Of a stretch of 20,000 nucleotides of DNA, positions 143 to 20,000 are shown one piece after another (the stretch's first letter is position 1; every line of letters starts with the position of its first letter). The position numbers and the translations under genes are program-made. The stretch covers positions 797,681 to 817,680 of the forward strand of contig JAYWIR010000057.1 in NCBI GenBank assembly GCA_036172245.1, in the 5' to 3' direction. Source of the DNA: Raillietiella orientalis (taxonomy: Eukaryota). The notes beneath the pieces were generated by a model. It was given only the letters and a program-made list of their open reading frames with translations, ran no database searches and had not been told where the DNA came from.

Positions 143-180
143 ACTACACTTTGATCTTAGCCAAAAGGCCGAGAAGCGAT
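143..180 (-). pseudogene. U2: U2 snRNA 5' fragment (nt 1-38), truncated within the branch-point-pairing sequence
   Basis: Reverse complement reads ATCGCTTCTCGGCCTTTTGGCTAAGATCAAAGTGTAGT, the canonical U2 5' end. It continues CTCGAG instead of the expected ATCTGTTC. Confidence 0.95.
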
Positions 181-290: not shown

Positions 291-1236
291 TCAGTTCTTC
301 TTGGAAAGAGATTTACTGGATATGTTATTGATAATCCGTCTGTCCGTTGACATTTTGTTGTAGTCTGGTTCCCAATTATCGAAAACCAGTATGTGTGGTG
401 GCTGAAAGTATTTAATGGAACCTTGAGACTTGCCGTCGATGATGATACCGTTCTTTAGGCTTTCTATGAATCCATACTGCACATGTTCCTGGTTGTCCCG
501 GGTGAAGTCAGTGACGAGAATTCTCCGTTGTAGATATACCGCATCGGCCTTCCTGCAGGAAGGCATGTAGATGGCCTTTTTTTTAAGGAAGAGAAATTTG
601 GCCATCCTTCTCTTCTCGGCGTTACCAACTGGGTCGTAAAACCAATATATTTTTCTCTCGTGAGGTTGATGTATAATGTCTAAGATTTTAAGTTGCCATT
701 CTTTGAGCTGAAGATTAGCGAGTGGGTTGGGATGTGTTCTGCTGCGGGATAATCGGAAACATTCTTTTGTAAAGTTGATGTTCTTTGCGTAAAACTTCGT
801 ATGGTGCTTGAGAATGAACTGTTCGCCTGCGCCATTTTCGATGAGTTGTAGGATCTGAAAAGAAAATGACCTTGAAATAGTCAACTACGCAGTTTGCTTA
901 CTTCTTCTTCATAAGTTTTTGCTTCTGCATCTTCGTTCAGATCTCCGTAAACCCATGCTTCTTTGTCCTGCTTGGTGCAGTACTTCAAGTTGCTCTGAGG
1001 TGAACCTTTTGCCTTTTCCAGGTGACACTTGTGAAAAGGCTTTCGGTGCAAACCAGGCATTCTCCTCGGTTCCTTCAATTTAAAGTAGCCCTGTAGTGCG
1101 GTGTACCGGTATCTGCCGTTTCTCTGCCAATACAGGCAAAGTGGCAGTTGCATCTGCACATTGTTTGATAGCTCTGAAGTTTTCGGAGTAGTTATACAAT
1201 GTAAGGCACCAATTGAAAAAAAAATGCATGAGGCAT
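291..1236 (-). pseudogene. rep: Endogenous CRESS-DNA virus Rep (HUH endonuclease + SF3 helicase), nanovirus/alphasatellite-like helicase type, frameshifted (Rep A)
   Basis: Stitching frames gives ATG at 1236, motif I WCLTLYNY, GRETADTGTPH/LQGYF (motif II, 1-nt deletion near 1097), HLEKAKGSPQSNLKYCTK (motif III), degenerate Walker A WFYDPVGNAEKR, Walker B VTDFTR, ESLKNG, motif C PPHILVFDN and KMSTDR. About four frameshifts. Confidence 0.93.
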
Positions 1237-1244
1237 GTTGGTAA

Positions 1245-1409
1245 TTCACTAATGGTGTGACTGTGGATCGGATGTTTGGTGGTTTATATACTAACACAGA
1301 CCCAAATTATGAAAAGATGTCTTCAGACAGATGGATTGTGCATTTCATTAATGAATCAAAAAGAACAAGCAAATATCCAATAAGTAGTATGTGTTCTTCA
1401 GGACGTTAA
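1245..1409 (+). pseudogene. rep: C-terminal fragment of a second, divergent CRESS Rep (Rep B)
   Basis: Not in the ORF track. The frame ending at TAA 1407-1409 reads NGVTVDRMFGGLYTNTDPNYEKMSSDRWIVHFINES, which aligns with Rep A NGIIIDGKSQG...VFDNWEPDYNKMSTDRRIINNISS with an internal deletion. Confidence 0.8.
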
Positions 1410-1826: not shown

Positions 1827-1858
1827 GCGCAATCTGGTCAGTGTTACCCAGATTGCGC
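1827..1858 (+). other. CRESS rolling-circle origin stem-loop with nonanucleotide CAGTGTTAC
   Basis: GCGCAATCTGG (1827-1837) and CCAGATTGCGC (1848-1858) form a perfect 11-bp stem. The loop TCAGTGTTAC contains CAGTGTTAC (1839-1847), a NAGTRTTAC-type nonamer. Confidence 0.88.
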
Positions 1859-2185
1859 AGTTATCTGACCCTCTATTCATCTCGTCCTGCATCACATCTT
1901 GGAGTGACCAAGGTTGAAATTGACGCAGGGAGAGAAGATCTTCGGGACTGATTCCCTAAAATGCAGCCGAAGACTCAACAGATTCTAGCCGCCAATCATT
2001 AAAATTTAATGGGCGGCAGGAAATCCACGAATTGGCTTCCATCATTGAGGCTAGTTGCCTCAAAGGATGGGCAAAATCGTTTTGTGGCGCATGCCCGGCA
2101 CCAAGGAAAGAAGTCCGTCATTGCCGAGACCTCCATAGAAGGATGCGCGAAGGCACATAGAGCAGCGAAGTCGAAAGCTTGGAAC

Positions 2186-2505
2186 AGTGTCAGCATCCTG
2201 AACTGCACTTGCATTCTGATCCGCGCCATCGTCAGGATTCCAGAGGTGGCATCCCGAGGTTGAGCCATCAGGTCTTTCAGGCGGATCCTAGGCGTTTAGC
2301 CCGTTCTTTGGCGGCGTAGGGGGAGTACAAAAGAAAAAACAGGGTTCAGAGGACGGGGGCCACGAAGATGTTACAAATAGCCGCATGTTCCGGCAAGATA
2401 AACTAGCCATTAATTAAGGGGCTAGAGGCCAGCACTGCCTTATGAAGGCAGTCCGACCACGCCTCTTCGGCGCCGAAGTCGCCCAGTGGAACGCCAAGAT
2501 AAGTT
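2186..2505 (-). pseudogene. Decayed Tx1-like ORF2 fragments (post-RT region)
   Basis: YLGVPLGDFGAEEAWSDCLHKA and RIRLKDLMAQPRDATSGILTMARIRMQVQFRMLTL match element S (5325-6005). Contains stops and an internal deletion. Confidence 0.85.
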
Positions 2506-3120
2506 GGCGGCTTTTTTCCCGCTTTTACCGGCGAGCCGACGGTAAGCAGCACTGCTGGCTGGAGATCACGGTCGCCACCGTCCTCCATGGTGCTGCACGA
2601 ATTCGAGTGCTCGTCTCCGGGTAGCGTCGTTTGACGCCCCGGGGTGAGCTTTCGCACCTTCGCGGTCTGCGCTGCGCGCCTCAGGGCCTTAGCCCGGCGC
2701 GCTACGGCTACCGCGCTGGTGATCCGACGTGCGGCGATCTCAGACTCCGTTTCAGAGTGTGATTGAAGCGCGGGAGCTTCGCTTCTCACCTATCGTGTCG
2801 ATTCGGAGGTGCTCGCGGATGGAATCCCGACACTTCCTTTTTCGCGATCACCGGAACATCGTTCCTGACGATCGCAGCTTTCGCGCTATGCGCAACTGCG
2901 GTGGTAGCCTTGGCATCGGCATAGGGAACCTTCGCGCGAGTCTTCATCGCGCTACTGTTTCTTACATTGGAGAGGCTCTTGCAGTTAGGTTGCGGAGAAT
3001 TTTTGGGAGATTTTGTTTTTCTCCCTTTCTACACAACCTTCCACCCTCCGTCCGTTCCCTCGGAGCGCTCCTCGACTTTCGTGAGCAACGCTACCGGGCT
3101 TTCCTCCCCAACCGCCTGGG
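2506..3120 (-). pseudogene. Probable decayed Tx1-like ORF1 C-terminal low-complexity region
   Basis: GC-rich, Ala/Lys/Glu-rich translation containing EGTDGGWKVV*KGRKTK, comparable to EEGWQKVGKKK and ETEWQVATAKKSKK in the ORF1s of Z and U. Confidence 0.5.
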
Positions 3121-3301: not shown

Positions 3302-4344
3302 TTACCGCATGGGTTCAGCTGCAGGCAGTATTTTTTCATGTTGCCTTAGCCTGACCGCCCTTGGAAATCTATGCTCAAAGTTACGTATGGCTTCGTGCAA
3401 CTTGGTCCTGATGTCTGCTACACGGTCAGTACCCAGTTGTGGCGTAATCATTTCAATGGGTCTGAACGACAACTCCTTCGGAAATTTCGTGCAGAAGGCT
3501 TCCCATTCAGGCGAGAAATCCTCCTTTGACTCAACAGCCTGTTGCGACATATGGAGCGATCAACAGAGTGTGGACTTAGGGTGTATATTAAGCATGAATG
3601 ACCCAAGCCTTACCAACGTAGCATCTGCATCGTAGTCGTTGAAGTTGGTGCGGGCTTGACCGATGAGATATCTAGCTCCTATATGATAATACTTAGCGTT
3701 TGGCATAGTACTCGCATAGCACACGCCCATGAACACCATATTCTCAGGACAGTTTGCAGCTTGCGCCCAATTGACCAGACGTTTGAATGCCTGGTACGCC
3801 ACTGCATGCCGATGAGTTCCAGCAGGTGGGGACAGGAATCGAAGCAGAGCATCCTGGGATATAGTCACGGGTTTAAATGAGGGTCCTTGGACTGTGAAAG
3901 GCACTGATTCAATCATATGGGCAAATCCTGCCAGCTCCAGCACACGAAGAGTACTGCAAAAGTGACCTAATGTATGGGCCACATCCATCCCCTTCTTTTA
4001 AGATCTTTATCTTGCAAACAAAGAGCGCCAGACTTTTAGAGGATACCCTGCACCTCTAGTGTTATCTTCCCGGATACCGGTGTGATGATTAGTCAGCGAC
4101 CATGACACTTTTGTAGCTATAACTAGGACCATGCAATTCGTCGCTAGTTGCTGATTCAGGGCAGCTTGGCTGGCTGTTCGTTGGGCTGGTGTCAAATCAT
4201 GCCGTTGAGGAGTTGGTCGCCAGTCTCCATCCGGTATTAATACACCATTAATGGACCTATACCGAATCATATCATAGGTTAGCAGAGCATATATGCCGTT
4301 GATCATCAGCGTCAATTGCGCATCTTTGTATTGCTTGGTGCTGT
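3302..4344 (-). pseudogene. Endogenous RNA-virus nucleocapsid/capsid-like gene, tentatively qinvirus-like, 5'-truncated
   Basis: ORFs 4007-4351, 3560-3988 and 3302-3550 share one frame, split only by stops at 4007-4009 and 3560-3562. Intronless and lower in GC than the LINEs. Motifs ATKVSWSLTNHHTG, HTLGHFCST, PAGTH, YHIGARYL and PKSTL are recalled from qinvirus-like segment-2 proteins (unverified). AT-rich trailer at about 3122-3301. Confidence 0.55.
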
Positions 4345-4374
4345 TTATCACCCGGGTGCGCCGGGGCGTTTATT
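4345..4374 (-). repeat. Conserved LINE 3' terminal motif, copy 1 (S)
   Basis: AATAAACGC CCCGG CGCAC CCGGG TGATAA. Confidence 0.9.
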
Positions 4375-6857
4375 ACAAAACTATCCGGGAACAGAGTTCC
4401 CGAACAAGGAATACAGAAAAGACGAAGGAGGGGGGTCCCCGACACGCAGGTCGGTATACAGAAAGTCCGGAACTGGAGGGAGGGAACCACAAATACACAG
4501 ATAAAAAACAGAAATAAAGATATGGGGAAGGTAGGGACAGGGTACTTTGGTACGGCCGTTCCTTCCTTTCAGAACCGCCGATGGATGCCGGCGATCTCTC
4601 TCCTCACGCCCTCTGGTAGATGGGCCCACTCGGCAGCCGACGACATGCTCGCGCTGGCTAATCCGGTGGGCTGACGAAGAATGGCAAGCTTCTCCAACTC
4701 TCGGTGGGCCTTGTCGATGGCGTGGGTGCAACAGACCGTTGCGATGACAGCACCTAACGACAGGCCGCCTGGCATGAAGAAGCGGCTCATCAAGTCTCTC
4801 GCGGTGTCCCCCTGGTGCAGGAGAGCGGAGGACAGCCTCCGCCACAGTCCTAGGAGGGCACCGCAGTCCAGGATCAGGTGCGGGAACGTTTCCACTTCCC
4901 CGCACTGCTTACAGTTTGGGGAGACAACTCCCCCGGAGACACGGTTCGTCCGCTGGCTGGAGTGAAAACCCCAATGCACCAGCATGATGACGTCATGCTT
5001 CCATGAAAGGGGTAACAGAAGTGTTCAAACAGGAGGGAGGGACCACAAGTTCTTCGGGGGCACACTCAAGTGTTCACTCCACCGAAGGAGTCCCTTCGGG
5101 ATGTGGCCAGGCGTGGCGGAGTCTGCTAGCTCGCAAGTCCTCCAGCCGCCAATGTGTCGTGTTGTTCCTGCGATAGTGCGGGCGACCTCCCATCTCGCCG
5201 GTTCGCAGCTGTCATCTCTTGCCCTGAGGGCTGACAGCATGTCGGCGAGGGGCGTGACGGCCAGGCGAGTCCACTTCTGGCTGTTGCACACCTCATCCAC
5301 CGTGCAGTACGGGGAGAGGTGAACCTAACGGAGTTCCAGGAGGGAAACATCTTGGTGCTTTGCCCAGCCATGCAACGGTTCCTGCCACCAAACTTCAAAG
5401 TTCGTTGGGCGACAGGGAATCCATTCCTGGGCTGCCGGGAGCCGGTAGAGGGTTTTCAACGGGAAACCGTCGCTCCTCGTGGCGCGCTCCGTATGCGGCC
5501 GCAGCGACAGAAGTTCATCGCTGCCGGTGCAGCGCCGCAGGAGCAGACGCGCAGGAGCGAACCACGGGGTGGACCAAAGGTTGGCGCACAGGGTCAACAT
5601 CCGAAACTGCACCTGCAGCTCCATTCTCTCCAGCGTCAGGATACCTAAGTTTGCATCCCGACGCGGAGCCGCGAAGTCTTTGAGGCGGATCCTGGACCTC
5701 GCAGGTCCCCACAGAGCGTTCCTCAACAGGCTGTGCGCCTGGAGCTTGGCCGAGTAGGGGGCCGGGCAAACAAAAAGCAGGGGTCGCAAGAGGGGGGCAA
5801 CGAAGGTGTTAAATATCGCGGCCCGCTCCGACAGGAGGAACCTGCTATCGTGAAACGGGCTCAGAGCACTCGTAGCCTTCCGAAGGCAGTCCGACCACTT
5901 CCACTGAGCTGATGTTCTCCAGCAGAACGCCCAGATACTGGATGCAGGAAGCGGTCCGGATCCCCAGGCGGATCCAGTCGGACTGCCCCTCTCACGCCGC
6001 ACCAATACGAACGACCACGCTCTTGCTCCGGTTTACGCTCATACCCGCTCCCCTGCGAATCAGCTCGAAGAAATTATCGAGACTGGACGCCGGGGTGGTC
6101 ATGGGTAAAAGGAGAAGCAGGTCGTCGGCATAGACCGCCACGGCCGGAGTTCCCGGACAGGAGCTCGGCAGGTTGGCCAGAGTCAGCCTGTACGCCCTCA
6201 GCACCAACTCAAAGAAGATGCTGAAGAGCAGGGCGCTTAAGCTGTCTCCCTGCCTGATACCCCGCCCTATGGGAACGCCGTACACGTGGCGCCCGCTGAA
6301 AGAGATATAGCATAGCGCGTGGCGCCTGCAGGAGCGCAAGTAGGCGATGAGGTGCGTCGGGTGACCTAGGCGTTCCAGAATCTCCAGAAGGAGATCCTGG
6401 TTTACGCTGTCGAGCACTTTGCAGAGATCGACGGCGACCGTTAAGGCACCCGGCGTTCCATCGTGCCCTGAACACCGCCGCTTACCTTTGGCAGTGGCGA
6501 TTTCGGCTGCCTGGCTCTGCTGCGCCACGCGCTGCTGCAACTCGAACCATGTTCGCGCGAGGAAGAGATTCGCGTCCATGCACCGCCCCGTCTGCTCCGG
6601 ACTTACCAAGGACTCCGCGATTCTCCCCAGCCGCGCGACCCATAGCTTCGAGAAGAACTTGACGTCCGAAGTCACTAAGGTGATCGGACGCCAGTTGCTG
6701 AGGTGGCGGAAATCCCAGCCTTTCGGCAGGAGCCGCACCTTTGCTTAGCGGAAAGAAGCGGCAACATATCCCGTCTCCCGCATCAGCGAGGAAAGACTCA
6801 GCACCAGGGGGACGAGCTCCGACGCGAAGCACTGAAAGAACTCCGCGGGCAGGCCAT
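4345..6857 (-). mobile_element. Tx1/L1-type LINE segment S (subfamily 1): RT, C-terminal zinc finger, 3' UTR; decayed
   Basis: GLPAEFF, NWRPITL, GIRQGDSLS, YADD, CKQC...HLILDC. Several frameshifts and deletions (YAVP lost). 3' terminal motif at 4345-4374. Confidence 0.93.
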
Positions 6858-6858
6858 A

Positions 6859-7243
6859 CGTGCACAGCTGGCCAACGAGATGTGCGCTGCCATGAACGCG
6901 CGCAACTTGTTGGCCGGTGACGCCGGGAAAAATACGAGGATCGACCACATGTTCCTCGACAACCACCTGTGTTCGTGGGTGGGAAATCGAGGCGCAGTGC
7001 CATTCGAACTTGCCGACCATCCCCGGCTTGTGCTAGAGATACACCCGCGCGGTAGAGGTACACCCTCCACAGCGTGTCGTTTGCCAGGGGACTGGTTGCG
7101 CCTCGCAAGAGCAGCGCAACATCTTCGCTCGTTCCTGCAAGGCTTCCATCTGCAGTTGCTCGCGGACTGGGACGACTTCAAGAGCTCAGTCCGCGAGTTC
7201 TGCGACCAGTTTCCCCTAAACCGTCTCCCTCCAGGTTTCGGTG
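6859..7243 (+). mobile_element. Segment T: C-terminal half of a LINE AP endonuclease, inverted relative to its neighbours
   Basis: LANEMCAAMNARNLL...IDHMFLD...LADHPRLVL...LPPGFGV, closely similar to Z at 16440-16822. Confidence 0.9.
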
Positions 7244-7274
7244 TTGCCACCCGTGTACGCCCGGGGCGTTTATT
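7244..7274 (-). repeat. Conserved LINE 3' terminal motif, copy 2 (X)
   Basis: AATAAACGC CCCGGG CGTA CACGGG TGGCAA. Confidence 0.88.
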
Positions 7275-10200
7275 GAAAACTACAAAAACATTAAACTAGG
7301 CCCCACTAACGGCCGCACAGCACCGAACCTGGCGGAACGCCGGGACGGAGCCCGGCATGACGCTCCTCGGCAGTGGAGGGGGATGGGGAATAAAACAAAA
7401 ATAAAAATAAAGATATAGAAAACCAAAAAGAGTTTGGAGGGAGGGGAAGGGATCATTGTCCACTAGGAGGAGGGCCCATCCTTCGCAGGATGCCCTCCAG
7501 GTCCATCTTCATGCTTCCCAGATGGGGCCATCTCGCAGCTCTCCGCATGAAGCAGACCGCATACGGGATGACTACCCTCTCGTTGGCATCCACTGCGTCG
7601 CGAATGTCGCTCCACGCCGACACGATGCCTCGGATGCAGCAGAGGTCCCCGAGGGCTGCGGCGGGCTGCAGGGCGTCCCGCACGAAGAGGGGCCGAAGAA
7701 CGTCTCTGGGCGTGCTGCCCATTGGGAGCCCGAGTGTCGTCCCGAACCGTTCCCTCAGGGTTCGGAAAGCAGCACAGTCAACTAGTAGGTGGGAGAGCGA
7801 TTCCCGCTCCCCACACCTGGCCCACTCAGGGCTTACACTTCCTCGCGTGCAGTGGAAGCGGCGCGCGTTGCAGGGTATACCCCAGTGCAACAGCAGCAGC
7901 GCCGTCTCTTGCCACTTTAGAGGGAGAAAACTGGATCCGATGAGAATTGGGGGCCACTTGAGGTCATCCGTCGGGATGCCGAGCAGCTCGCCCCATCTCA
8001 GAAGTCCACGTGGGAGGGCACTAGGGGTCGTGGCGTCTGCCAGTTCTCCCATGGTCCAGCCGCTCATCTTTTTTCCCTTCCTGCGATTCAGCAGGAGACT
8101 TGCCACTTTGGCGTCCGGCCGCTGGTTAAGGCCCTCCGTAGGAAGGGCAGCGTCGAAGCCAAAGGGGTGGTCTCCGCCCACGTGCTCCTGGCGGGACACT
8201 CCAGAGTAGTCCGTAGGGTGCAGCAGGCGTTGGGGACGAGTCGCAGGCGGTTCCATTCACGTCCAGTCTGAAGGTTCAGCTTGGCACACGTGCCAACGGA
8301 TTCCTCCAGCCAGGCGGAGGAGTTGGCGGGGCTGCATACCGTCGAGCCGTTCTCTCTCACCAGGGATTCCATGCGCCCAAGGTGAAGGCCGCATTTTCTG
8401 AACTTCCGGCCGTGGCACAGAAGGTATGACGCGAGTCCTTGCGTCCTGGATACACGGCTGGCGAGGATGCGGGCTGGAAAGCACCAAGAGGTGCTTCATG
8501 TATTTGCTGCGATGGCGAGGGTGCGCCATTGCAGCTGTATGTGCAGGCGTTCCAGCGTCAAAGGGCCGAGACCGCCGTCCCGACGTGGAGCGCATAAGTC
8601 CTTTAGAGGCACACGTGGCCTCCCCATGCCCCAGAGGGCGATGCGGAGAAGGGCTTTCGTCCTCTTTTTCAACTCAGGGGAGACGGGGCACACAAAAAGC
8701 AGGGGGCGGAGGATGGTAGCCGCGAACGCGTTCCACACTGCGGCCCTTTCCGGCAGAAAGAACTTGCCTTCTAGGAACGGTCCGATTTCCAACTCTACCT
8801 TTTGGAGACGACCTGACCTGGCTTCTGCGAGGCAGAAGTCCCCCAACGGAACACCCAGGTACTTCAGGTACCTGGCCGTGGGAATCCCCATGCGGATCCA
8901 GTCAGGCCGTCGAGCCTACGTCGCACCCACCGGTACCACCGACGACTTCGCCTTGTTAACCTGCAATCCAGTCCCACGGCTTAGCAGATCGTAGAAATCC
9001 TCGACTGCGGTTGCCGGGGAGGACATGGGCAACATCAGCAGAAGATCGTCGGCGTATGCAGCTACTGCGGGCGTGCCAAGGCACCAGCTTGGTAAGGCAG
9101 CCAAAGTCACCCTGTACGCTCTCAGCACCAACTCAAAGTAGGTGCTGAAGAGCTGGGGACTGAGGCTATCGCCCTGCCGTATGCCCCGCCGCACCGGCAT
9201 GCCGTACACCTGTTGGCTGGAAAAGCAGATGTTAACAATGGCGTGGCGCCAGTAGGAGCGCAGGAAGGAGAGAAGGGAGGGTGGGAAGCCCATGCGACCC
9301 AGGAGCTCCAACAGTAGCTCCTGGTCAACGCAGTCGAACGCCTTATGGAGATCGACCGCGATCGCTAGGGCCCCCTTCCCAGCCCGGGTGTCCATTCCCA
9401 GCCCAGCTGGCGGCCCCAAAGTGGGGTTGCCAATCTTTCCGCCAGTGTCGTTTAGGCAGCGCTGCACATGGAACCATGTGCTCGCGAAGAACAGGTTGGC
9501 ATCCATACTTCTCCCGGGAACAGCGTATGTCTGCTCCGGGCTAATTATGGAGTCTGCCACCTGTCCTAGACGCGAAGCCCACAGTCCAGCGACCAGCTTG
9601 GCGTCCGTATTCACAATTGTGATCGGACGCCAGTTGCCTAGGGATCTCAGGTCTCCTCCCTTCGGGAGGAGCCTCACACGGGCTGACCGAAACGAGGCGG
9701 GAACGTCGCCTTCGTCTCGGATCAGCGCGGTCAACTGGAGCACCAGGGGGGCCAGCTCTGCTGCGAAGCATTGAAAAAATTCCGCAGGCAGGCCGTCCTT
9801 CCCTGGAGCCTTACGCCTCTTGAGCCTTTTAATACCGGCGAGAATTTCACCGGTAGAAAAAGGCTCGTTGAGGCTGTTCCTGTCCTCCTCCCCTATTGCC
9901 GGGGCTCCGTCCGGAAGCAGGAGCCGCGATGCGTCTCGCTCTGGGGGTGCCCTAGCGTAGAGGGAGGAATAGTAATGCCGCACGAGGCGCCTGATCGCGG
10001 GTGGGCCCGATCGCTCCCGGCCTTGGTCGTCCAGCAAGCTGGTCGACCCGGATTGCCAGGCTTGGCGCTGGGCTCCGGCTCGATATTCGGCCAGGCGACG
10101 GACATTGGGGGTCCTCTCGTACCGGCGGGCCTGTAAATAGGCCGTTTGGTTCCGAACCCCCTCCCCAAATCCGGGGGGCAGGCGGTGCAGGGGAACTCCT

Positions 10201-10584
10201 CGCAGAACTCGCGGACCGAGTCCTCTAAGAGGTCCCAATCTATGAGACTGCGGAGGGTGACGCCTCTCAGGAATTTGCGAAGGTGTTCCTGCGCACCTGA
10301 GAGCCGCGTCCAGTCCCCAGGGAGCCGCCTCGCCCTGGACGGGGGTCCTTTGTCGCGCGGGCAAACTTCGGCGATTATCCTGGAATGGTCCGACAGCGTC
10401 GACCCAAGTTTCCCCCGTTTGCCAACCCGTGAGCACAGGTGGGCATCCAGGATGAAGTGGTCGATGCTGCGGTCCATTCCCTCCGCGTCTGCCAACAAGT
10501 TCCGCGTGCGCATGGCAGCGCACAACTCGTTGACCGTGCGTTCTTGTGCTTCGGGCTCACCTGACAGCAGACGGAGATTAAAGT
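7244..10584 (-). mobile_element. LINE segment X (subfamily 2): endonuclease C-half, RT, zinc finger, 3' UTR
   Basis: FNLRLL...IDHF...SDH, APGKDGLPAEFF, NWRPIT, DLHKAFD, GIRQGDSLSP, YADD, KYLGV. Premature TAG at 8916-8918 and several frameshifts. Stop at 7453. 3' motif at 7244-7274. Confidence 0.95.
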
Positions 10585-10614
10585 TTATCACCCGGTCACG
10601 CCGGGGCGTTTATT
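10585..10614 (-). repeat. Conserved LINE 3' terminal motif, copy 3 (Y)
   Basis: AATAAACGC CCCGG CGTGA CCGGG TGATAA. Confidence 0.9.
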
Positions 10615-11460
10615 AATAATAAACTGGTCAGGGACAATGTCTCGAACCAACGACAGAACGACAGGGAACATAGACAAATTACCGGCACGCAGGCCTGGTA
10701 AACAAACCGCTCGCAACGTGGAAGGAACGAGGGGAAAACAAAAAAAAATCAAAAACTGGAGGGAAGGGTAACGGGTTTTTGGTTAGGCTCCGTACTCACG
10801 GGGATTTAAACGATGAGCACCTGAAATGTTCCGGAGCCTATGGGGACGCGGGTGTAAAAGGAAAATACAAAATTAGTTTATGGAGGGTAGGGCAATGATC
10901 ACCGGGTTGGCCGCTGCTGAGCGTGTGTAAACCGGCGGTGTGTTGCGGCGAGATTCCTTTTTGACTCCTCTGTCAAATGAGGCCATCTAGCGGATGCACC
11001 CATGTAAAAGGATGCTTTACTGATTACCTCTTGGTGCTGTCCGTTGATTACCAACGCCTGGCGGACGGAAACTATCGCGCGTATGCAACCGATGGTTGCA
11101 ATCCTTGCGCTTAGGGACAGCCGCTCGGCGTGAAGAATCGTCGCAGCAAGTCTCTTGCGGTGTCCACGGGATGCAATAGTGCTGTTGACAGCCTACGCCA
11201 TAGTCCTTGTAGGACACCGCAGTCCAGAAGTAGGTGCGGGATCGACTCCGTCGACCCGCACGGAACGCAGTTGGCAGATGCAAGTCCCCCGGAGTCTCGA
11301 TGCCAACGCTCGTTACACTGAAAACCCCAGTGAACGAAAAGCAGCACAGCTTGTTTCCAAGCAAGGGGGAGCAGCGAACTGTCAACACACTGTGGAGGGA
11401 CTACAAGTTCTTCGGGGATGACAGCAAGTTCTTCTGCCCACCGGAGGAGTCCCTTTAAGT
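10585..11460 (-). mobile_element. LINE segment Y (subfamily 1-like): ORF2 C-terminus and 3' UTR
   Basis: KGLLRWAEEL...LPLAWKQ...HWGFQC...CVPC...HLLLDC, similar to the S tail. Premature stop at 11111. 3' motif at 10585-10614. Confidence 0.9.
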
Positions 11461-11570
11461 ACAACGAGGAGTGGCGGCGTCCGCCAAATCACTCGTCTTC
11501 CAGGCGCCAAGGAGTTTTCTCGCGAGTGTTTTCAGGGTTTTTAGGTGTGAGCGGTTGTTCCTGGGCAGAG

Positions 11571-14500
11571 TTGCCCGAGGACGCCGCAAAGACGGCGGTG
11601 GGGGGCGAGCGCGCCTCGTCCCCCCAGCCCATGGATGTGGGGGCGTTCTCCCCCACGGAATCGTCCCCCGGCCCGGCGAGGGCTTGGAGCGCGGTGGTGG
11701 CGGCGCCTGCGCCGCCCCCCGCAGAGGAACAGCGGGCGTATATGGCCGACGGCTACAACCCGGCCCTACTTTATAAGGTAGGTGGCCTATACTCCCCCGC
11801 GGTCTTGCGGTCCTTCGCCGCGGAGTTTAAAAAGCTAAAAGTCCCGGAGGAAGAAGTCCTCGGGCTTTCGGTTAGAAGTGGCGGGCAGCTTGTTGAGCTG
11901 AACTGCAAGTCTGCAGGGATGGCTCAGCAGCTGCTCCGCCTGCCGGTGACCGTGAACGGTCGAAGAATCTTCCCGTTCACGGCGCACAATTCCATCGTTG
12001 TCCATCTCACCGGAATTACCATGCGAATGGCAAAGACCGCCGTTCGCGAGAGTCTGGAAAAGTTCGGGACGGTCCACGCGTTGTGGGCAAAACCCAATGT
12101 CCTGGGTTACACCAGGGCATTCAGTGGTTACACCGCTGCCCGCGTGACCGTCCGAGCCGAGGGTGGGCTACCCCACAGACTGCAGGTCGGGGAGGAGGAG
12201 ATCGACCTGTGGTATGTGGGGAAACCCGTTTACTGCGGCTTTTGCCAGGTGTCGGGGCACCTGAAGAAAAAGTGCCCCAACATCGTGTGCTTAGGCTGCG
12301 GTGGGAAGGGGCACATCAGGCGGATGTGCCCCAACAGGAAAAGGTCCGGTCCCGTTGGCGCAAGGAAGGAAGAGACGCCGAGGGAAGAGGACAAGGGCCA
12401 GGAAATGGCCGAATCCCGCCCGGCCAACCAACCCGATGCTCAGCCATCCTGCAGCACAGAACCTGCTGGAGAGAACGCCGAGAACGAGGAAGGTTGGCAA
12501 AAGGTAGGGAAGAAAAAGCCCCAGAAGAAGGAGGCAAAAAAGGTAAACAAGGCGGCGCCGAAAAAGCAGAAACCGGTCGTCCGCGCTTGTACGGTGAAAA
12601 TCGAACGCATCTCGATCTCCAGAGCCGTAAAGAAAGTAACGGTAAAGGCGATCGATACCGTCGATCCTGAGCCGGTTGTGCCCGCAGTGACGTCACCTGA
12701 GTGCCATTTCGCGCAGTGCCTACTGCCGGATGGTGCTCCTGCGCTCGGGGAGGAAGTTTGTTCCAGATTGTCAGGACCCTTTACGATCACAGAGATCATC
12801 TCCGCCATCAGTAAATTAAAAGCAAGGAAGGCACCAGGGGAGGACGGCCTGCCCGCGGAGTTTTACAAATACTTCGCGCCAGAGCTGCCCCCCCTGGTGC
12901 TCAGGTTAAGTCAGCTGATCCGCGAACACGACGAAGTTCCCGCCTCGTTCCGGTCAGCAAAAGTACGTCTCCTGCCGAAGTCAGGAGACCTACGCAACAT
13001 TGGCAACTGGCGTCCCATCACAGTAGTGAATGCGGACGCAAAGTTGTATGCCAAGTTGTGGGCTGAGCGTTTGGGGCGAGTGGCCGCTTCCGTGGTGAGT
13101 CCCGAGCAGACCTACGCTGTTCCCGGACGAACCATGGAGGCCAACCTGCTCCTCGCCAGCTCATGGTGGCAGTTGCGACAACGCGTTGCTCAGGATGGTC
13201 AAGGAAGCCTCGCGCTCCCCTCTGACCAAGAAGATCGGATAGAGGGTGGGATGGACTCGGCGGGAGCCCTTGCCGTCGCGGTCGATTTGCACAAAGCATT
13301 CGACTGCGTCGACCAGGATCTCCTTCTGGAGCTCCTGGAACGCATGGGCTTCCCGGCCGTGCTCCAGTCCTACCTGCGCTCCTGCTGGCGCAACGCGTCT
13401 ATTAATATTTGTTTCAGCGGCCGGTACGTGTACGGCGTGCCAGTGCGCCGCGGCATACGGCAGGGTGACAGCCTGAGCCTCTTGCTCTTCAGCATCTACT
13501 TCGAGTTGGTGCTGAAGGCTTACAGGGTAACTCTGGCAACCCTGCCGAGCTCGTGTGCCGGCACGCCTGCCGTGTCGGCCTATGCAGACGATCTTCTGCT
13601 GCTGCTTCCCGGGTCCACCCCGGCGAGTGCGCTCGAGGAATTCTTCGAGTTGCTGCGCCGCGGGACGGGCCTGGAGGTGAACAGGGCGAAGTCGTCCATG
13701 GCTTGTGTTGGCTCGGCGTGGGCTGGACGGTCGGACTGGATCCGCTTGGGGATCCCCACGGGCAGGTGCTTCAAGTACCTTGGCGTTCCGTTGGGTGACA
13801 TCTGCGCAGCAGAAGCCTGGTCCGACCGTCTCCAAAAGGCAGCGTTGGCGATCGGTCCGTTCCAAGAAAGCAAGTTCTACTTGCAGGAACGGGCCGCGGT
13901 GTGGAACGCGTTCGCGGCCCCCCTCCTTCGCCCCCTACTTTTTGTGTGCCCCGCCCCTTATTTTGTCCGAAAAAGAGCAGCGGGCCTCCTGAGGACAGTC
14001 CTTTGGGGCAAAGGGAGGTCCCGTGTGAGACTCAAAGACTTGTGCGCTCCACGTAAGGACGGTGGACTTGGCCTACTTACGCTGGAGCGCATGGAAGTAC
14101 AATTACAGTTCAGAACGCTCGCCCTTGCAGCGGAACTGTGGGACACGCCCTGGTGCGTTCCAGCACGCCTTCTGGCCCAACGTGCCTCTGGATATGGCGG
14201 ACTCTCGTCGTTTCTCTGGGCTTGCGACCGCAGACAAGCGCATTGCGGCTTTCACCTGCGTCGCATGGCCGTTGTGGCTCGGAAGAACGCATGGATCTCC
14301 TGCCTTCCTGGGAACCACTCGGCATGGCTGCACGAGTCAGTCTCCTCTTGGGAAAAGATCCACGTACCGGCAGGTACAAAGAACACTTGCCTGAAAAGGC
14401 ACGCCCGCTGGACGCTGCAGGAAATCGTGCAATCCCACGATCAGTTTCTGTGGGCCTTTATAACCCCCCTTGCTCCAGTGCTGCCCTTTTTAGTAAACGC

Positions 14501-15152
14501 CAGGAACAGCAGAGAGCAGGGAAAATGGACAGTGTCCTGCACCATAGATGGTAGGACACGAAAGATCGAGGCGTGGACATCTCGGCAGCTTACGGACGCT
14601 GCGACGCCGAGTGTCCCGCCTAACTTAATTCGACGCTGGGGCGAGCTACTCGGACTATCTCCGGAGGAGATGAAGTGGCCCCCAGCGTCCTGGAACAGTG
14701 TATCCCTCCCCTTGAAATGGCAGGAGGTGGCGTTGCTGGTTTTACACTGGGGTCTACCCTACAAAGCATGCCTCTCTCACTGCACACGGGGGGCTGTGGA
14801 TGCCAATTGCGACCGGTGCGGAGAAAAAGAGACATTTCCCCACCTTCTTATTGAGTGCAATGCTCTCCACCCTCTCTGGGATCGGCTTGCAACGATCCTA
14901 AACATTCGCGGAGGTGGCCCTAAAGAAATTTTTAGGCGCCTCTTCTTGCATGACGCCTTGTCCCCACCGGCCTCAGTAGCAGTTCTTTGCTGCATCAGAG
15001 GGGTCGTGGCGGCTTGGAACGCCACAAGAAGAAGGCGCCAAGTTAGCGGCAATGCTACATATTGGACCCGCCTCTTTGTGAGGAACATTTGCAGGTGGCG
15101 ACACCTGGTTGAACGACGGACGCAGCTTGTGAAGATCCTGAACAGGATCTAG
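11571..15152 (+). CDS. Uninterrupted chimeric ORF: Z ORF1 N-part (2x CCHC) fused in frame to W reverse transcriptase and zinc finger; no endonuclease
   Basis: The 1244-codon open frame (11418-15152) contains CGFCQVSGHLKKKC, CLGCGGKGHIRRMC, KAPGEDGLPAEFY, DLHKAFD, YADD (13581) and CDRC...HLLIEC. Start uncertain: TTG 11571 (aligns to the U ATG) or ATG 11631. Confidence 0.8.
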   Translation: MPEDAAKTAVGGERASSPQPMDVGAFSPTESSPGPARAWSAVVAAPAPPPAEEQRAYMADGYNPALLYKVGGLYSPAVLRSFAAEFKKLKVPEEEVLGLSVRSGGQLVELNCKSAGMAQQLLRLPVTVNGRRIFPFTAHNSIVVHLTGITMRMAKTAVRESLEKFGTVHALWAKPNVLGYTRAFSGYTAARVTVRAEGGLPHRLQVGEEEIDLWYVGKPVYCGFCQVSGHLKKKCPNIVCLGCGGKGHIRRMCPNRKRSGPVGARKEETPREEDKGQEMAESRPANQPDAQPSCSTEPAGENAENEEGWQKVGKKKPQKKEAKKVNKAAPKKQKPVVRACTVKIERISISRAVKKVTVKAIDTVDPEPVVPAVTSPECHFAQCLLPDGAPALGEEVCSRLSGPFTITEIISAISKLKARKAPGEDGLPAEFYKYFAPELPPLVLRLSQLIREHDEVPASFRSAKVRLLPKSGDLRNIGNWRPITVVNADAKLYAKLWAERLGRVAASVVSPEQTYAVPGRTMEANLLLASSWWQLRQRVAQDGQGSLALPSDQEDRIEGGMDSAGALAVAVDLHKAFDCVDQDLLLELLERMGFPAVLQSYLRSCWRNASINICFSGRYVYGVPVRRGIRQGDSLSLLLFSIYFELVLKAYRVTLATLPSSCAGTPAVSAYADDLLLLLPGSTPASALEEFFELLRRGTGLEVNRAKSSMACVGSAWAGRSDWIRLGIPTGRCFKYLGVPLGDICAAEAWSDRLQKAALAIGPFQESKFYLQERAAVWNAFAAPLLRPLLFVCPAPYFVRKRAAGLLRTVLWGKGRSRVRLKDLCAPRKDGGLGLLTLERMEVQLQFRTLALAAELWDTPWCVPARLLAQRASGYGGLSSFLWACDRRQAHCGFHLRRMAVVARKNAWISCLPGNHSAWLHESVSSWEKIHVPAGTKNTCLKRHARWTLQEIVQSHDQFLWAFITPLAPVLPFLVNARNSREQGKWTVSCTIDGRTRKIEAWTSRQLTDAATPSVPPNLIRRWGELLGLSPEEMKWPPASWNSVSLPLKWQEVALLVLHWGLPYKACLSHCTRGAVDANCDRCGEKETFPHLLIECNALHPLWDRLATILNIRGGGPKEIFRRLFLHDALSPPASVAVLCCIRGVVAAWNATRRRRQVSGNATYWTRLFVRNICRWRHLVERRTQLVKILNRI
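12683..12697 (+). repeat. Target-site duplication of W, left copy
   Basis: CGCAGTGACGTCACC, identical to 15404-15418. Confidence 0.93.
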
Positions 15153-15403
15153 AGGACCTTTCGGCGCGCAATGTGATTCCCCTCCCGCCCCCCCCTATCC
15201 CCCAAACATAAGTGTCCTCCCCAATTTTTACATTTTCTTTTTTGCTTTGTTTTTTATTCCCGTTGCCGCGCGCTTGAAGGACCTCGCCGGTTGAGAACCG
15301 GCAAGAAGCAGGCTGCCTTGTGGTGAACCATCAGGCTCTCCACACGAAAATAACATGTATTTTTATTTTTTCAAATAAACGCCCCGGCATATCCGGGTGA
15401 AAG
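12698..15403 (+). mobile_element. LINE segment W (subfamily 3): 5'-truncated, TSD-flanked insertion with intact RT
   Basis: Begins at PECHFAQCLLPDGAPA (compare X PERDASRLLLPDGAPA). Stop at 15152, C/T-rich 3' UTR, terminal motif at 15374-15402, flanked by a 15-bp direct repeat. Confidence 0.93.
15374..15402 (+). repeat. Conserved LINE 3' terminal motif, copy 4 (W)
   Basis: AATAAACGC CCCGG CATAT CCGGG TGAAA, followed by G and the TSD. Confidence 0.9.
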
Positions 15404-15418
15404 CGCAGTGACGTCACC
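15404..15418 (+). repeat. Target-site duplication of W, right copy
   Basis: CGCAGTGACGTCACC. ORF1 resumes here (AVTSPSADD...FAQAAEELAA, matching U FARAAEELAA). Confidence 0.93.
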
Positions 15419-15965
15419 ATCAGCTGACGACAATGCCGTGCCGGCATTGCCAGCGAAGGACGTCTGCGCGCCGATCGATGAAGCCGCCCCTGTCGCGCCT
15501 GCGCAAAGCGTCGGTGCGGAAAGCGAGGAGGCGGCGCGTATAACGGACGCGACCTTCGCGCAGGCCGCGGAAGAGCTGGCAGCCATGTTACGGCAGCCTG
15601 CCAAGGACGAGAAGAAGGCCTTGAGACGACCGGCAACGGTGAAGGGCCCTTGAAAATTCCGAGTCCGAAACCGAAGCCGGTTGTTCTACTTCCGAAGCCG
15701 TGCCTAAGAGGAAGGCTGGCAAGAAGACCGGTTGCCCGAGACGAGTCATCCCTCAGGTGGAGGAGGCCATGTCCTCGGGCACGGAGGAGGAGGCAATGTG
15801 CGTCGCGCCACGCGGCCCCACTCCGATCCGTGTCTCGGAAGCCAGCCCCATGGAAGTCGCTGTGGACGACGTGCTCCCGTGTGAGCAGCCGACCGTCGTC
15901 ACGGCCGCCAACGAGACGCCTCCCGCAAGGAAGGAGGCCGCCTCCACCCCACAATAAACACACCA

Positions 15966-16822
15966 ATGCGTGGGCTCGGCTCCTGCCGCCGCTTGCGCAT
16001 CATGTGTTGGAACGTCAACGGGTTGCGCGACGACGGTAAGAGGCGAGACGTAGCCGCCATACTGCGAGACTTTGACCTGGTGCTCCTGCAAGAGACGCAC
16101 GTTCTCAAAGCAGAAGAAGTCCAGGAAATCGAAAGAATCGCGGGAGGGCGGCTACTGCGGAGTGACCTTTATGCTTAAGCCAGCCGTCGACAACGCACTG
16201 CGCAGCGTCAGGTTCGACGAGGACGGTCGAGTTGGGCAGCTTGCGTTCAAGTGGTCCGACTCGATCGTTTTCGTGGTGACGAACCTGTACGCTCCGGTGA
16301 GCAGCCACAGGGCCGAGGAACGCACTGCGTTCTTCGAATCCCTGCGGCGAGACTGGTTGGCTGAAGCAAGCGTACGGCGGGCGCACCTCATCGCGGGCGA
16401 CTTCAATCTCCGCCTGCTGGCAGGTGCGCCCAGCAGTCAAGCACGACTGGTCAACGAGTTGTGCGCAGCCATCAACGCGCGCAACTTGTTGGCCGGTGAT
16501 GCCGGGAGAGATCGGAACATCGACCACATGTTCCTCGACAACCACCTGTGCACGCGGGTGGGAACTCGAGGAACGCTCCCGGCACAGCTGTCCGACCATC
16601 CACGGCTCGTGCTCGAGATACATCCACGCGACAAGGGCCCTCCCCTGAAAACGTGGCGCCTGCCAGGGGACTGGTTGCGCCTCGCAGGAGCGGCGGAACA
16701 TCTGCGCGCATTCCTGCGAGGATTCCATCTTGAGACGCTCGCGGACTGGGACGAAATGAAGTGCTCAGTCCGCGAGTTTTGCGACCAGTTTCCCCTGGAA
16801 CGTCTTCCGGCGGGCTTCGGCG
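15966..16822 (+). pseudogene. AP endonuclease domain of Z ORF2
   Basis: WNVNGL, LQETH, NLYAP, AGDFN, IDH, SDH. Frameshift near 16150. Homology ends at LPAGFGV. Confidence 0.93.
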
Positions 16823-16853
16823 TTATCACCCGGGTACGCCCGGGGCGTTTATT
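16823..16853 (-). repeat. Conserved LINE 3' terminal motif, copy 5 (V)
   Basis: AATAAACGC CCCGGG CGTA CCCGGG TGATAA. Confidence 0.9.
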
Positions 16854-18646
16854 AATAAACTCTACATGCGTGGTACAAGGCCCCACCACGGCCGTAAACA
16901 CAGGACCTGTCGGGACACCGGGACGCAGCCCGGCGTGGCACTCCCCGACAGCGAAAGGGGATGAGGGGAAAAACAAAAAGAAAAAAGAAAGAAATAAAAA
17001 AAACAAAAAGAGTTTGGAGGGCAGGGTAGGGATCACTGGTCGCTGTGAGGAGGGCCCATCCTTCCAAGAAAGCCCTCGAGGTCTCTCCGCATATCTCCCA
17101 GCTGGGGCCATCCGGCAGCTCTCCGCAAGAAGCGTTGGGCGTATGGGATGACATCCCTCGCCTGTGGACCCACTCCTTCGTTGTTGGCGTCGCTCCATGC
17201 CGCCACGATGCCACGGACACAGCACAAGGCTGCGATGGCTGCGGCTGGCTGCAGTGCGTCCTTCACGAAGAGGGGCCGAAGAACGTCTCTGGGGGTGCTG
17301 CCCGTAGGGAGCCCGAGGATCGTCCCGAACCGTTCCCAAAGGGGTCGGAGGGCAGCACAATCCACAATAAGGTGGGGAAGCGACTCCCGCTCCCCGCACC
17401 TGGCACACGCAGGATCCACAGCTCCCCTCGTCCAGTGGAAGCGGCGCGCGTTGCAGGGTAGACCCCAGTGCAACAGGAGCAACGCCGACTCTTGCCACTT
17501 GAGGGGCAGGATCCTGGATTCCTTCATCACCGGGGGCCACTTCAGCTCATCCCTGGGGATGGCGAGCAGCTTGCCCCATCTTAATAACCCTCGCGGCTGG
17601 ACGCTCGGGGTCGTGGCGTCGGCCAGTTCTCCTGTTGTCCAGCCGCTAATCAACTTCTCGCGTCCCTCGATGCAGCAGGAGACTTGCCACCTCGGCGTCC
17701 GACTGCTGTGAAGTGCCCTCCTCAGGAAGGGCAGCGCCGTAGCTAGGCAGGTCGTCTCTGCCCACGTGCATCTTGCTGGACTCTCCAGGAGATTCCGCAG
17801 CGTGCAGCGGACGTAGGGGCTGCATCGGAGACGATTCCACGTTTCGTGGCTCCTCTGGTTAACCGCTGCCCACGTTCCAATATTCTCCTCCAGCCAGGCG
17901 GGGGAGTTGGCGGGGCAGCAAACCATCCAGCTGTTCTCCTTGGCCAATGTTGCCATGCGCCCGAGCAGTAGGCCGCATCTTCGCATCTTCCGGCCACGGC
18001 TCAGAAGAAAAGACGCGAGTCCATCGCACCGGGACACACGGCTGGCCAGGAGGCGGGCCGGAGTGCACCAAGGGGTGCTCCACATCTTCGCTGCGATGGC
18101 GAGGGTTCGCCACCGCAGCTGCTTCTCCACGCGCTCCAGCGTCAGGAGGCCAAGACCGCTGTCCCGACGCGGAGCGCACAAGTCCTTCAGAAGGACTCGG
18201 CCCCCCCCCTTGCCCCAAAGGGCGATACGGAGGAGGTCCTTTGTCCTCTTCTTCGATTCCACGGTGGGGGGGCAAACAAAAAGCAAGGGGCGGAGGATGG
18301 GGGCCGCGAAGGCGTTCCAAGCCGCGGCCCGTTCCGGCAAGTGAAACTTGCCTTCCAGGAACGGGCCGATCGCCGTCTCGACTTTTTGGAGGCAGCTGGA
18401 CCACGCTTCCGCAGGGGAGTAGTCCCCCAACGGCACACCAAGGTACTTGAAGCACCTCGCCGTGGGGATCCTCAGACGGACCCAGTCCTGCTGCCCTGCC
18501 CACGCCGCACCTATTGGCACAACCGACGACTTCGCCCTGTTAACCTGCAGTCCGGTCCCGCGGCTGAGCAGATCGAAGAAGTCTCCGACCGCCTTTGCCG
18601 GGGTGGACATTGGCAACAAGAGCAGAAGATCGTCGGCGTACGCTGC
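16823..18646 (-). mobile_element. LINE segment V (subfamily 2): ORF2 from YADD to the 3' end
   Basis: Open frame from AAYADD to the stop at 17033, with KYLGV and CARC...HLIVDC. Tail GRMGPPHSDQ resembles X RRMGPPPSGQ. 3' motif at 16823-16853. Confidence 0.93.
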
Positions 18647-20000
18647 TCGATGTCCGGCCGAACGCCTTGTGCGCTCTAGGGTGGACGTGTTTTCTCGGTG
18701 CTCCTCGTGCCAGGAAGTCTCCCCCAGTGCAAGCGTCGTGTGGTTCGGTGGTCGATCAGGCAGCGATGCCTGACGCGACCACCAGGGATGGCCAGGGGGC
18801 AGCGGAACGCCGCCCTCAGAGGCGATGGAGGTGGGGCATCCGCCCCCACAGAATCGGTCCCCGCTGCAGCGCGGGCGTCGAGCGCCGTTGTGTCAGCGCC
18901 ATCGCCTGCAGCCGCGGCGGAATTGTCGGCCTATGTAGATGAGGGGTGCAACCCCTCATTGTTCTACAAGGTAGGCAATTTATATTCTTTAGAGAGCGCG
19001 CGCGCCTTCTCGAAGGGCATGCGCGCTCTCGATGTGAAAGAGGAGGAGCTCAGTGCTATGACCATCCGCAGCGGGGGTCAGTACGTTGAGGTCATCTGCA
19101 AACATGCAGAGCTGGCCCAACGACTGCTTAAAACCACCGTTGTGATGGGGACGCGCAGGCTTCTCCCCAATACGGCGGACCGCAGCATGGTGGTCCACCT
19201 GTTAGGCGTGACCGCGCGAATGCGCAAAGAACAGGTTCGCGCCGCTTTGGACCAGTTTGGAACGGTCCACGCGCAGTGGACGAAAGTTAGTCCTTTCGAG
19301 GACTACACGGGGCTGCAACACGGCCTCACTGCTGCGCGCGTGACCGTTCGGGAGGGCTGCACTCTTCCCCACAAACTGGTGGTCAAAGGCGAAACCGTCG
19401 ACCTCTGGTATGTGGGGAAGCCGAAATACTGTGGCTTCTGCAATACGTCGGGCCACCTCAAAAAGAGGTGTCCCAATGTGCAGTGCAAAGTATGCGGCAC
19501 AATGGGCCACACGAGGGAGGTGTGCCCAAAAGCAGCAGTGCGGGTGGTTTCCAAGAGAAACCTTAAAAAACGCGCCCGGCTTCTGCAGAAAAGACTGGCG
19601 GCGAAAGCTGCCGCGAAGGCTCTGCCACCCGCGCCCAAGACCCAGGCCGCACCCGCGACCCCGGCGACCAACGCCGAAAAAGTTGAGGGAGCCGAACAGG
19701 AGACTGAGTGGCAAGTGGCAACAGCCAAAAAATCAAAGAAGGAGAGGAGGATGGAAAAGAAAATCGCCTACCAACAGAAGAAGAAAGAGCAGGGTAGCGC
19801 GATAATTAAAGAGTGCAGCGTCGTAGTCGAACGCGTTCTCCATGTTGCTGAACGCTGCCGGAAAGAACTCGCCGCTACCGACGACCTCCCCTCTGTTGAC
19901 ACAGTCAACAGCGAGGGGAGCGAGCCGGCGGCGGCGTCCGTCATCGACACCACCATCGATGACGTAGCCTTCGCGCGAGCCGCGGAGGAGCTGGCAGCCT
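18647..20000 (+). mobile_element. LINE segment U: 5' UTR and ORF1, running off the window end
   Basis: ATG at 18766, two early frameshifts, then open from about 18836 to 20000: YVDEGCNPSLFYKVG...DLWYVGKPKYCGFCNTSGHLKKRC...CKVCGTMGHTREVC, homologous to Z ORF1. Absent from the ORF track because it has no stop. Confidence 0.92.

Follow-up and report, generated by a model that had tools for sequence, protein, structure and literature searches.

A fixed, tail-less 3' terminus with a conserved palindrome shared across L1-like LINE subfamilies of Raillietiella orientalis

Fixed 3' tags are known from other groups of long interspersed nuclear elements (LINEs) and are unusual for relatives of L1. In the stringent L2-clade LINEs, such as eel UnaL2 and zebrafish ZfL2-1 and ZfL2-2, the region of open reading frame 2 (ORF2) between the endonuclease (EN) and the reverse transcriptase (RT) binds a 3' stem-loop (PMC4176376), and UnaL2 ends in TGTAA repeats (PMC3747384). 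Stringent lineages of the L1 clade include maize LINE1-1_ZM (monocot 1a) and Chlamydomonas L1-1_CR (PMC3472496; PMC3747384). L1 families without a 3' repeat are also in print, at 9 of 233 in plants and 5 of 15 in green algae (PMC3472496), so the lack of a tail alone is not new. Here we describe a 30-nt, tail-less 3' terminus from a 20,000-nt stretch (hereafter the window) of Raillietiella orientalis contig JAYWIR010000057.1 (assembly GCA_036172245.1, positions 797,681 to 817,680, forward strand), which is a nest of L1-like copies inserted into one another in a genome of 210 Mb.

The terminus has the consensus AATAAAY-G-N-CCCGG-(5-6)-CCGGG-TG-NNA(A). This 30-nt module is borne by the element, follows ORF2 in all subfamily types sampled, and integrates 3-4 nt past CCGGGTG with a target-site duplication (TSD) of 12-17 bp. 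We sampled 185 distinct ends, about 5% of those in the genome, mostly from contigs C1 and C2 and from LINE-dense contigs. At 40 of them an exact 12-22-nt duplicate lies upstream; its start falls 4 nt after CCGGGTG in 23 cases, 3 nt in 10, 5 nt in none, 6 nt in 2 (one mismatch explains each) and later in 2, and the remaining 3 are tandem copies that share the whole end. The 10 starts at 3 nt are about what a chance one-base match would give, and subfamilies ending in T may truly end there. With one mismatch allowed, we count 43 TSDs of 12-17 bp (mode 13-14) around inserts of 65-5,885 bp; outside tandem arrays, no motif stands in the upstream copy. Some inserts between TSDs are only 38, 40, 65 and 78 nt long, hardly more than the motif itself. 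Past the TG, positions +1 and +2 are variable, +3 is A in 179 of 185 ends, and +4 is A in 172 and T in 8. The A-run from +3 measures 0-4 nt in all 185, never more; the variable poly(A) tail of relaxed, mammalian-type L1 is absent. Because of the TSD starts, the bases at +3 and +4, and this short A-run, the end is fixed and tail-less. An earlier note on the window had also described the ends as free of an A-tail; the terminus it gave as GTGA is corrected here to TG-NN-A(A), the copy at 7274 reading GTGGCAA. Four loci (L081, L085, L021, L119) are head-to-tail arrays in which successive copies have the same TSD, as from repeated insertion at one site.

In the window, exact AATAAACGCCCCGG occurs five times (4361-4374, 7261-7274, 10601-10614 and 16840-16853 on the minus strand; 15374-15387 on the plus strand) against 0.17 expected, a count reached in 0 of 200 shuffles, and each occurrence lies some 200-400 nt past the end of a LINE ORF2 frame. 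The positions, the loop sequences and the lone stem mismatch (ACGGG at 7250-7254) agree with those first given for these five ends. The accompanying claim of widely differing 3' untranslated regions (UTRs) holds for four clearly different types, not five: over the 200 nt upstream of AATAAA, alignment identity between window ends is 47-61%, but the elements at 7274 and 16853 are 76% alike. The elements (E1 to E3, W and E5) and the copies that received them are as follows.

4345..4374, minus strand: E1 3' terminus, AATAAACGC-CCCGG-CGCAC-CCGGG-TG-ATAA, 200 nt past the ORF2 stop at 4569.
4345..6855, minus strand: E1 body, 5'-truncated, with broken ORF2 (RT to C-terminus) and 3' UTR, traced by tblastn with intact ORF2.
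6859-7243, plus strand: another LINE copy, whose EN-RT linker received E2 in antisense.
7244..7274, minus strand: E2 3' terminus, 6-nt loop GCGTAC, one stem mismatch, ends TG-GCAA.
7244..10584, minus strand: E2 body, ORF2 from endonuclease to C-terminus, EN domain broken by E3.
10585..10614, minus strand: E3 3' terminus, loop CGTGA, ends TG-ATAA; sense insertion in the GDFNL motif of the E2 endonuclease.
10608..10624, minus strand: predicted upstream hairpin of E3, GTTTATT-ATT-AATAAAC, with the poly(A) signal paired.
10585..11511, minus strand: E3 body, a short 5'-truncated copy with decayed ORF2 C-terminus.
11517..16821, plus strand: host LINE copy, with an ORF1 that W splits and that has two apparent CCHC knuckles, and with the endonuclease portion of ORF2 (15885-16821), cut by E5.
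12683..12697, plus strand: 5' copy of the W TSD, 15 bp, within host LINE ORF1, no motif before it.
12698..15403, plus strand: element W, a 2,706-bp 5'-truncated insertion with an open RT-to-zinc-finger frame.
15374..15403, plus strand: W 3' terminus, loop CATAT, ends TG-AAAG.
15404..15418, plus strand: 3' copy of the W TSD, from which host ORF1 continues.
16823..16853, minus strand: E5 3' terminus, 6-nt loop GCGTAC, ends TG-ATAA; GTTTATTAATAAAC palindrome at 16847-16860.
E5 insertion site: the same EN-RT linker position as for E2, in a different host copy.
16823..18646, minus strand: E5 body, 5'-truncated ORF2 (late RT to C-terminus).

The TSD reported earlier for W is present, as CGCAGTGACGTCACC at 12683-12697 and 15404-15418. 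In the near-intact copy L218 the ORF1 site of W is unoccupied and lacks the motif; in L212 the same site holds a second insert with a 5' junction unlike W's. At one host site the nick of W and L212 lies one base later than that of L071 and L169, and all end at +4. The earlier note had allowed that the motif might turn up at empty sites and so belong to the target; the TSDs, the 38-78-nt insertions and the motif-free empty site identify it as the terminus of the element. An 11-bp match that suggested a TSD for E1 was dropped, as it sits within another LINE. E2 and E5 are 78% identical and their hosts 80%, an equal divergence; one old insertion followed by duplication is possible, and the long open frames would favour separate events.

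Genome-wide, the exact 14-mer has 1,803 copies (control 0) and the full hairpin pattern 1,466; the stem-free pattern AATAAAC-N16-18-TGNNAA yields 4,113 against 551 for its control, which implies about 3,500 real ends. The motif follows 29 of the 30 ORF2 C-termini closest to W, a protein-selected set that includes W (28 by pattern, 1 by eye; the sole miss is a rearranged copy), and 26 of the 30 best Pfam zf-RVT matches, where the misses look interrupted or decayed. Across all DNA sampled it was found, with up to 6 mismatches, at 153 of 176 ORF2 ends and 7 of 225 reversed controls, the former figure being biased upward by the many loci that had been motif-selected; two motif-less ORF2 ends have a run of ten or more A within 750 nt. 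In the sampled loci the motif sits about 200-300 nt past ORF2. An Rfam scan of the window gave no match at gathering score for the hairpin motif. In collections outside this genome, the motif has 1 match in metagenome contigs, 0 in viral contigs and 2 in prokaryote genomes (about 1 expected by chance), and no LINE homology was found at these three matches, in collections that contain few animal genomes and so barely probe the range of the motif.

The elements carry an enzyme of the L1 group. Three ORF2 copies of 1,198-1,212 aa match PF03372, PF00078 and, just below the cut-off, PF13966, with an APE endonuclease, an RT, a C-terminal zinc finger and no RNase H, and the 43 TSD pairs together with 5' truncation are marks of target-primed reverse transcription. 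Compared with solved structures, the RT is closest to the L1 type (human L1 ORF2p, E 3e-33, versus R2, 5e-14). The best database matches are about 30% identical, the named ones being frog, plant and oomycete elements, and 19 RTs of the family form one long branch (support 100) at an unresolved node of a quick tree without labelled Tx1 references. Two CX2CX4HX4C motifs are visible in ORF1, where Pfam zf-CCHC scores only E 0.035, below cut-off; CCHC knuckles in ORF1 are also typical of plant L1. The family is young, as judged from the near-intact copies L218 (G000:C33:657900-665200), L217 and L214, with a 632-aa ORF1 frame and ORF2 frames of 1,198-1,212 aa. The starts of full-length copies have GGACGTG(T/C) in common (window 18670-18700, plus strand; L070, L079, L083, L085, L118, L121, L212), possibly an internal promoter or 5' tag.

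The 3' tag is nearly invariant, in contrast to ORF2 C-termini that are 33-72% identical within the window; a conserved 3' tail against a diverged body is a trait of stringent LINEs, and here the conservation is observed and the structure predicted. Clustering gave 72 groups, of which 66 subfamily representatives have an intact AATAAA (6 with an altered hexamer were dropped); since subfamilies are related, the p-values for the anatomy of the tag are optimistic. Stem positions are 92-100% conserved, C or T usually precedes the stem, and the loop mostly opens with CG. Loops do vary, as first described, and are only partly free: of the 61 representatives whose loop has 5 nt, 52 have C at its first position and 42 have G at its second. 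The palindrome is conserved as sequence, and the pairing of its arms is likely. C-to-T variants in the 5' arm, which are compatible with G.U pairs, exceed G-to-A variants in the 3' arm (166 versus 118, p = 0.005), a weak difference inflated by one repeated variant. That variant, CTCGG in the 5' arm with an AGAAAT loop, occurs in ten places (e.g., C9:39582 and C29:1472), would give a U.G pair, and represents either a lineage or a duplicated locus.

The enrichment of TGTA, together with an AATAAA placed 24 nt before the end of the element, looks like a working poly(A) signal. TGTA, which we take to be a CFIm site, is found in the upstream 50 nt of 35 of the 66 representatives, where 16 would be expected and no shuffle exceeded 26, and poly(A) cleavage usually falls 10-30 nt past AATAAA. 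Host histone genes carry the stem-loop GGCCCTTTTCAGGGCC, and AATAAA follows an intron-bearing H3 gene, presumably the mark of an animal whose poly(A) signal is AATAAA. Upstream, TTTATT occurs within 45 nt in 27 of 66 representatives versus 11% in shuffles. The predicted pairing of AAUAAA averages 0.53 against 0.28 (Wilcoxon p = 5e-6); in folding models, a second, loop-variable hairpin can mask AAUAAA in roughly half of all subfamilies, with E3 and E5 as the cases from the window. In many subfamilies an additional GC-rich hairpin, of differing sequence (e.g., GTGGCAGGA...TCCTGCCAC and GGGAAC...GTTCCC), lies 30-60 nt ahead of AATAAA and is a more promising place to look for true covariation than the terminal stem.

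Targets differ by subfamily. TSDs start with TCGA in 9 of 9 ends of one cluster and are ACARC-like in the cluster of E1. In one subfamily, five of five TSD-proven insertions of differing length read G|TCGA, with G at base -1; the RNA cannot template this base, yet it is conserved, which points to the endonuclease. Sequence preference of this kind, a trait of the Tx1 clade, is also seen where W and L212 occupy the same ORF1 site with differing 5' junctions. Among ends from loci not chosen by ORF2, 45 of 131 precede LINE coding sequence, 27 of those in antisense only.

We favor, with a probability of roughly 0.6, a model in which the ORF2 protein (ORF2p) recognizes the terminus stringently and begins reverse transcription at a set distance beyond the hairpin, the RNA probably being polyadenylated; such a measured start is what the fixed end points to. 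Under this sequence-based model, the 30-nt module would be the cis-acting 3' tag of an L1-group LINE radiation. RNA polymerase II (Pol II) would make the RNA, and the host would end it at or near NNA via UGUA and AAUAAA, probably adding a poly(A) tail. ORF2p would then bind the conserved AAUAAAY-G-N-hairpin, largely by sequence, and set the nicked 3' end of the target at a fixed distance from the stem; complementary DNA would start at the fourth base past UG, and any tail would be left uncopied. The endonuclease, and not the RNA end, would select the insertion site. RT recognition and a 3'-processing signal, both offered by the earlier note, are probably not alternatives. Only tentatively do we extend this to a fuller, and more doubtful, picture in which ORF2p ignores poly(A) and reads a portable 30-nt tag with the host poly(A) signal inside the RT binding site, starting four bases past the hairpin; precise, tail-free junctions would then arise across a radiation of endonucleases with differing targets, and the AAUAAA-masking hairpin would switch the RNA between processing and copying.

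Several observations weigh against stringent recognition on a polyadenylated RNA. The predicted pairing of AAUAAA in roughly half of the subfamilies could make it a weaker poly(A) signal, and the T at +4 in 8 of 185 ends cannot have come from a copied tail. In the five window ends, folding of the final 60 nt is no better than that of dinucleotide shuffles (z -0.81 to +0.43), so the hairpin rests on the conserved palindrome and not on folding energy. Covariation, a check that the earlier note proposed, is in excess at the outer stem pair (11 compensated copies genome-wide versus 3.6 expected; non-partner control 2 versus 3.8; Fisher p = 0.017) and not at the second (4 versus 3.1 expected; control 8 versus 2.9; counted by hand from 86 listed copies). 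The apparent support from the first pair and its control was reversed by the second, and the two pairs pooled give none (Fisher p = 0.40). Finally, a short interspersed nuclear element (SINE) sharing the tail, the usual genomic sign of stringency and also suggested by the earlier note, did not turn up when 180 ends, about 5% of those in the genome, were screened together with the 900 nt upstream of each; 27 of these ends had no nearby ORF2 match, of which 5 were tested against ORF1 and ORF2 and the rest judged by eye to be LINE UTRs or short truncations. One candidate, L133 (1,070 bp), proved to be a 5'-truncated LINE.

Alternatively, the RNA may end precisely at +4 without a tail, by cleavage without adenylation or by trimming that stops at the hairpin, with the RT beginning at the last base and the motif acting as a processing or stability signal. 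We regard this as unlikely, although the fixed end, the lack of A-run variation and the T at +4 would all suit it, as would the frequent predicted pairing of AAUAAA with the upstream TTTATT (27 of 66). The host's histone genes end in stem-loops, presumably reflecting tail-less Pol II processing, but the hairpin is unlike the histone stem-loop of this genome and has no Rfam match, and conserved TGTA and AATAAA at canonical spacing argue for ordinary polyadenylation. Less probable still is priming like that of silkworm R1Bm, in which the donor TSD on a read-through RNA would anneal to the nicked target, fixing the junction and making target preference heritable through RNA. The downstream target sequence is required by R1Bm (as cited in PMC7265360), and such priming would fit the strong dependence of TSD starts on subfamily (TCGA for one cluster, ACARC-like for another) and the tandem arrays with one common TSD. 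However, the 43 TSD pairs show no donor flank carried to new sites, 13 TSD mismatches are scattered (3 at position 2; 0 at positions 1, 3 and 4) and give no support, the conserved -1 base points to the endonuclease, and the poly(A) signal just upstream argues against routine read-through.

We give next to no credence to the motif being a DNA target site, or a separate small element, beside which LINEs insert. Tandem arrays do place a new copy directly behind an older end, and the empty site of W has CCGGTTG at the same spacing, but a motif-free upstream copy in the non-tandem TSD pairs and the motif-free ORF1 site in L218 rule out a target site, and the motif keeps its distance of about 200-300 nt from ORF2.

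The window also holds other features. An endonuclease fragment on the plus strand (6855-7254) abuts the 5'-truncated end of E1 on the minus strand and could be a twin-priming inversion or a separate host copy. At 143-180 (minus strand) lie the first 38 nt of U2 small nuclear RNA with one extra A (Rfam U2 E 1.6e-6, below gathering score), followed by unrelated sequence; it may stem from a truncated retrocopy, or from a U2 gene whose 5' half was left here when an element with U2 as its target split the gene. Keno and Utopia are elements that target U2 (PMC4640811). Broken rolling-circle Rep-like frames at 291-1306 (minus strand; Pfam Viral_Rep E 7e-6 at 881-1306) are apparently an endogenous piece resembling circular Rep-encoding single-stranded (CRESS) DNA viruses, and E1 is inserted at the edge of this region. 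The AT-rich frames beside it (1406-1837 and 3560-4369) have no Pfam match. A decayed RT fragment at 1830-2830 (minus strand) is only 29% identical to ORF2 of the main family and thus belongs to a different LINE lineage.

PMC3472496 and PMC4176376 raise the open question of how L1 enzymes moved between recognizing a tag stringently and recognizing poly(A) in a relaxed manner. The lineage described here offers a young L1-group element from an animal, whose tag is minimal and invariant and whose 3' junctions are precise to the base, for direct comparison with the solved human L1 ORF2p structures. We predict that this LINE family gives rise to few processed pseudogenes of the poly(A) type; for RNA-templated gene insertion, so short a tag with precise junctions would be of interest. 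Our literature search found no account of this terminus, nor, for Tx1 elements, a description of one like it; Repbase, subscription papers and supplements lay outside the search, so a library entry is possible.

Relative to the L2-clade elements UnaL2, ZfL2-1 and ZfL2-2, the terminus is likewise a short 3' tag without poly(A), here with a predicted stem-loop, and with stem-loop binding demonstrated there and proposed here. Each of those elements reads its own tail, whereas one nearly invariant tag is common here to subfamilies whose ORF2 C-termini are 33-72% identical, and this tag includes AATAAA and no repeat. LINE1-1_ZM and L1-1_CR also belong to the L1 clade, and their last 45 nt are conserved as a hairpin against a diverged body; their stems covary and they have SINE partners, whereas the stem here is invariant with no SINE seen, and L1-1_CR ends in poly(A) in contrast to a fixed, tail-less end. 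Similarly, Tx1-clade LINEs (Xenopus Tx1, Keno) share with this family an animal host, an APE-RT-zinc-finger ORF2, target preference and insertion into other repeats, and have a CCHC ORF1, as this family appears to (PMC4494074), but here the targets are only 4-7 bp long, differ between subfamilies and are often located in sister LINE copies, and the RT tree does not place the family in Tx1. R1Bm likewise starts reverse transcription accurately at a defined 3' position (as cited in PMC7265360), yet it is of the R1 clade, has a single ribosomal DNA target and needs downstream target sequence in its RNA, of which the elements here show no sign. In summary, no new class of element is revealed; what is distinctive is that an L1-group enzyme occurs together with an intact poly(A)-signal layout, ends that are precise to the base and lack a copied tail, and a single tag kept over a deep radiation.

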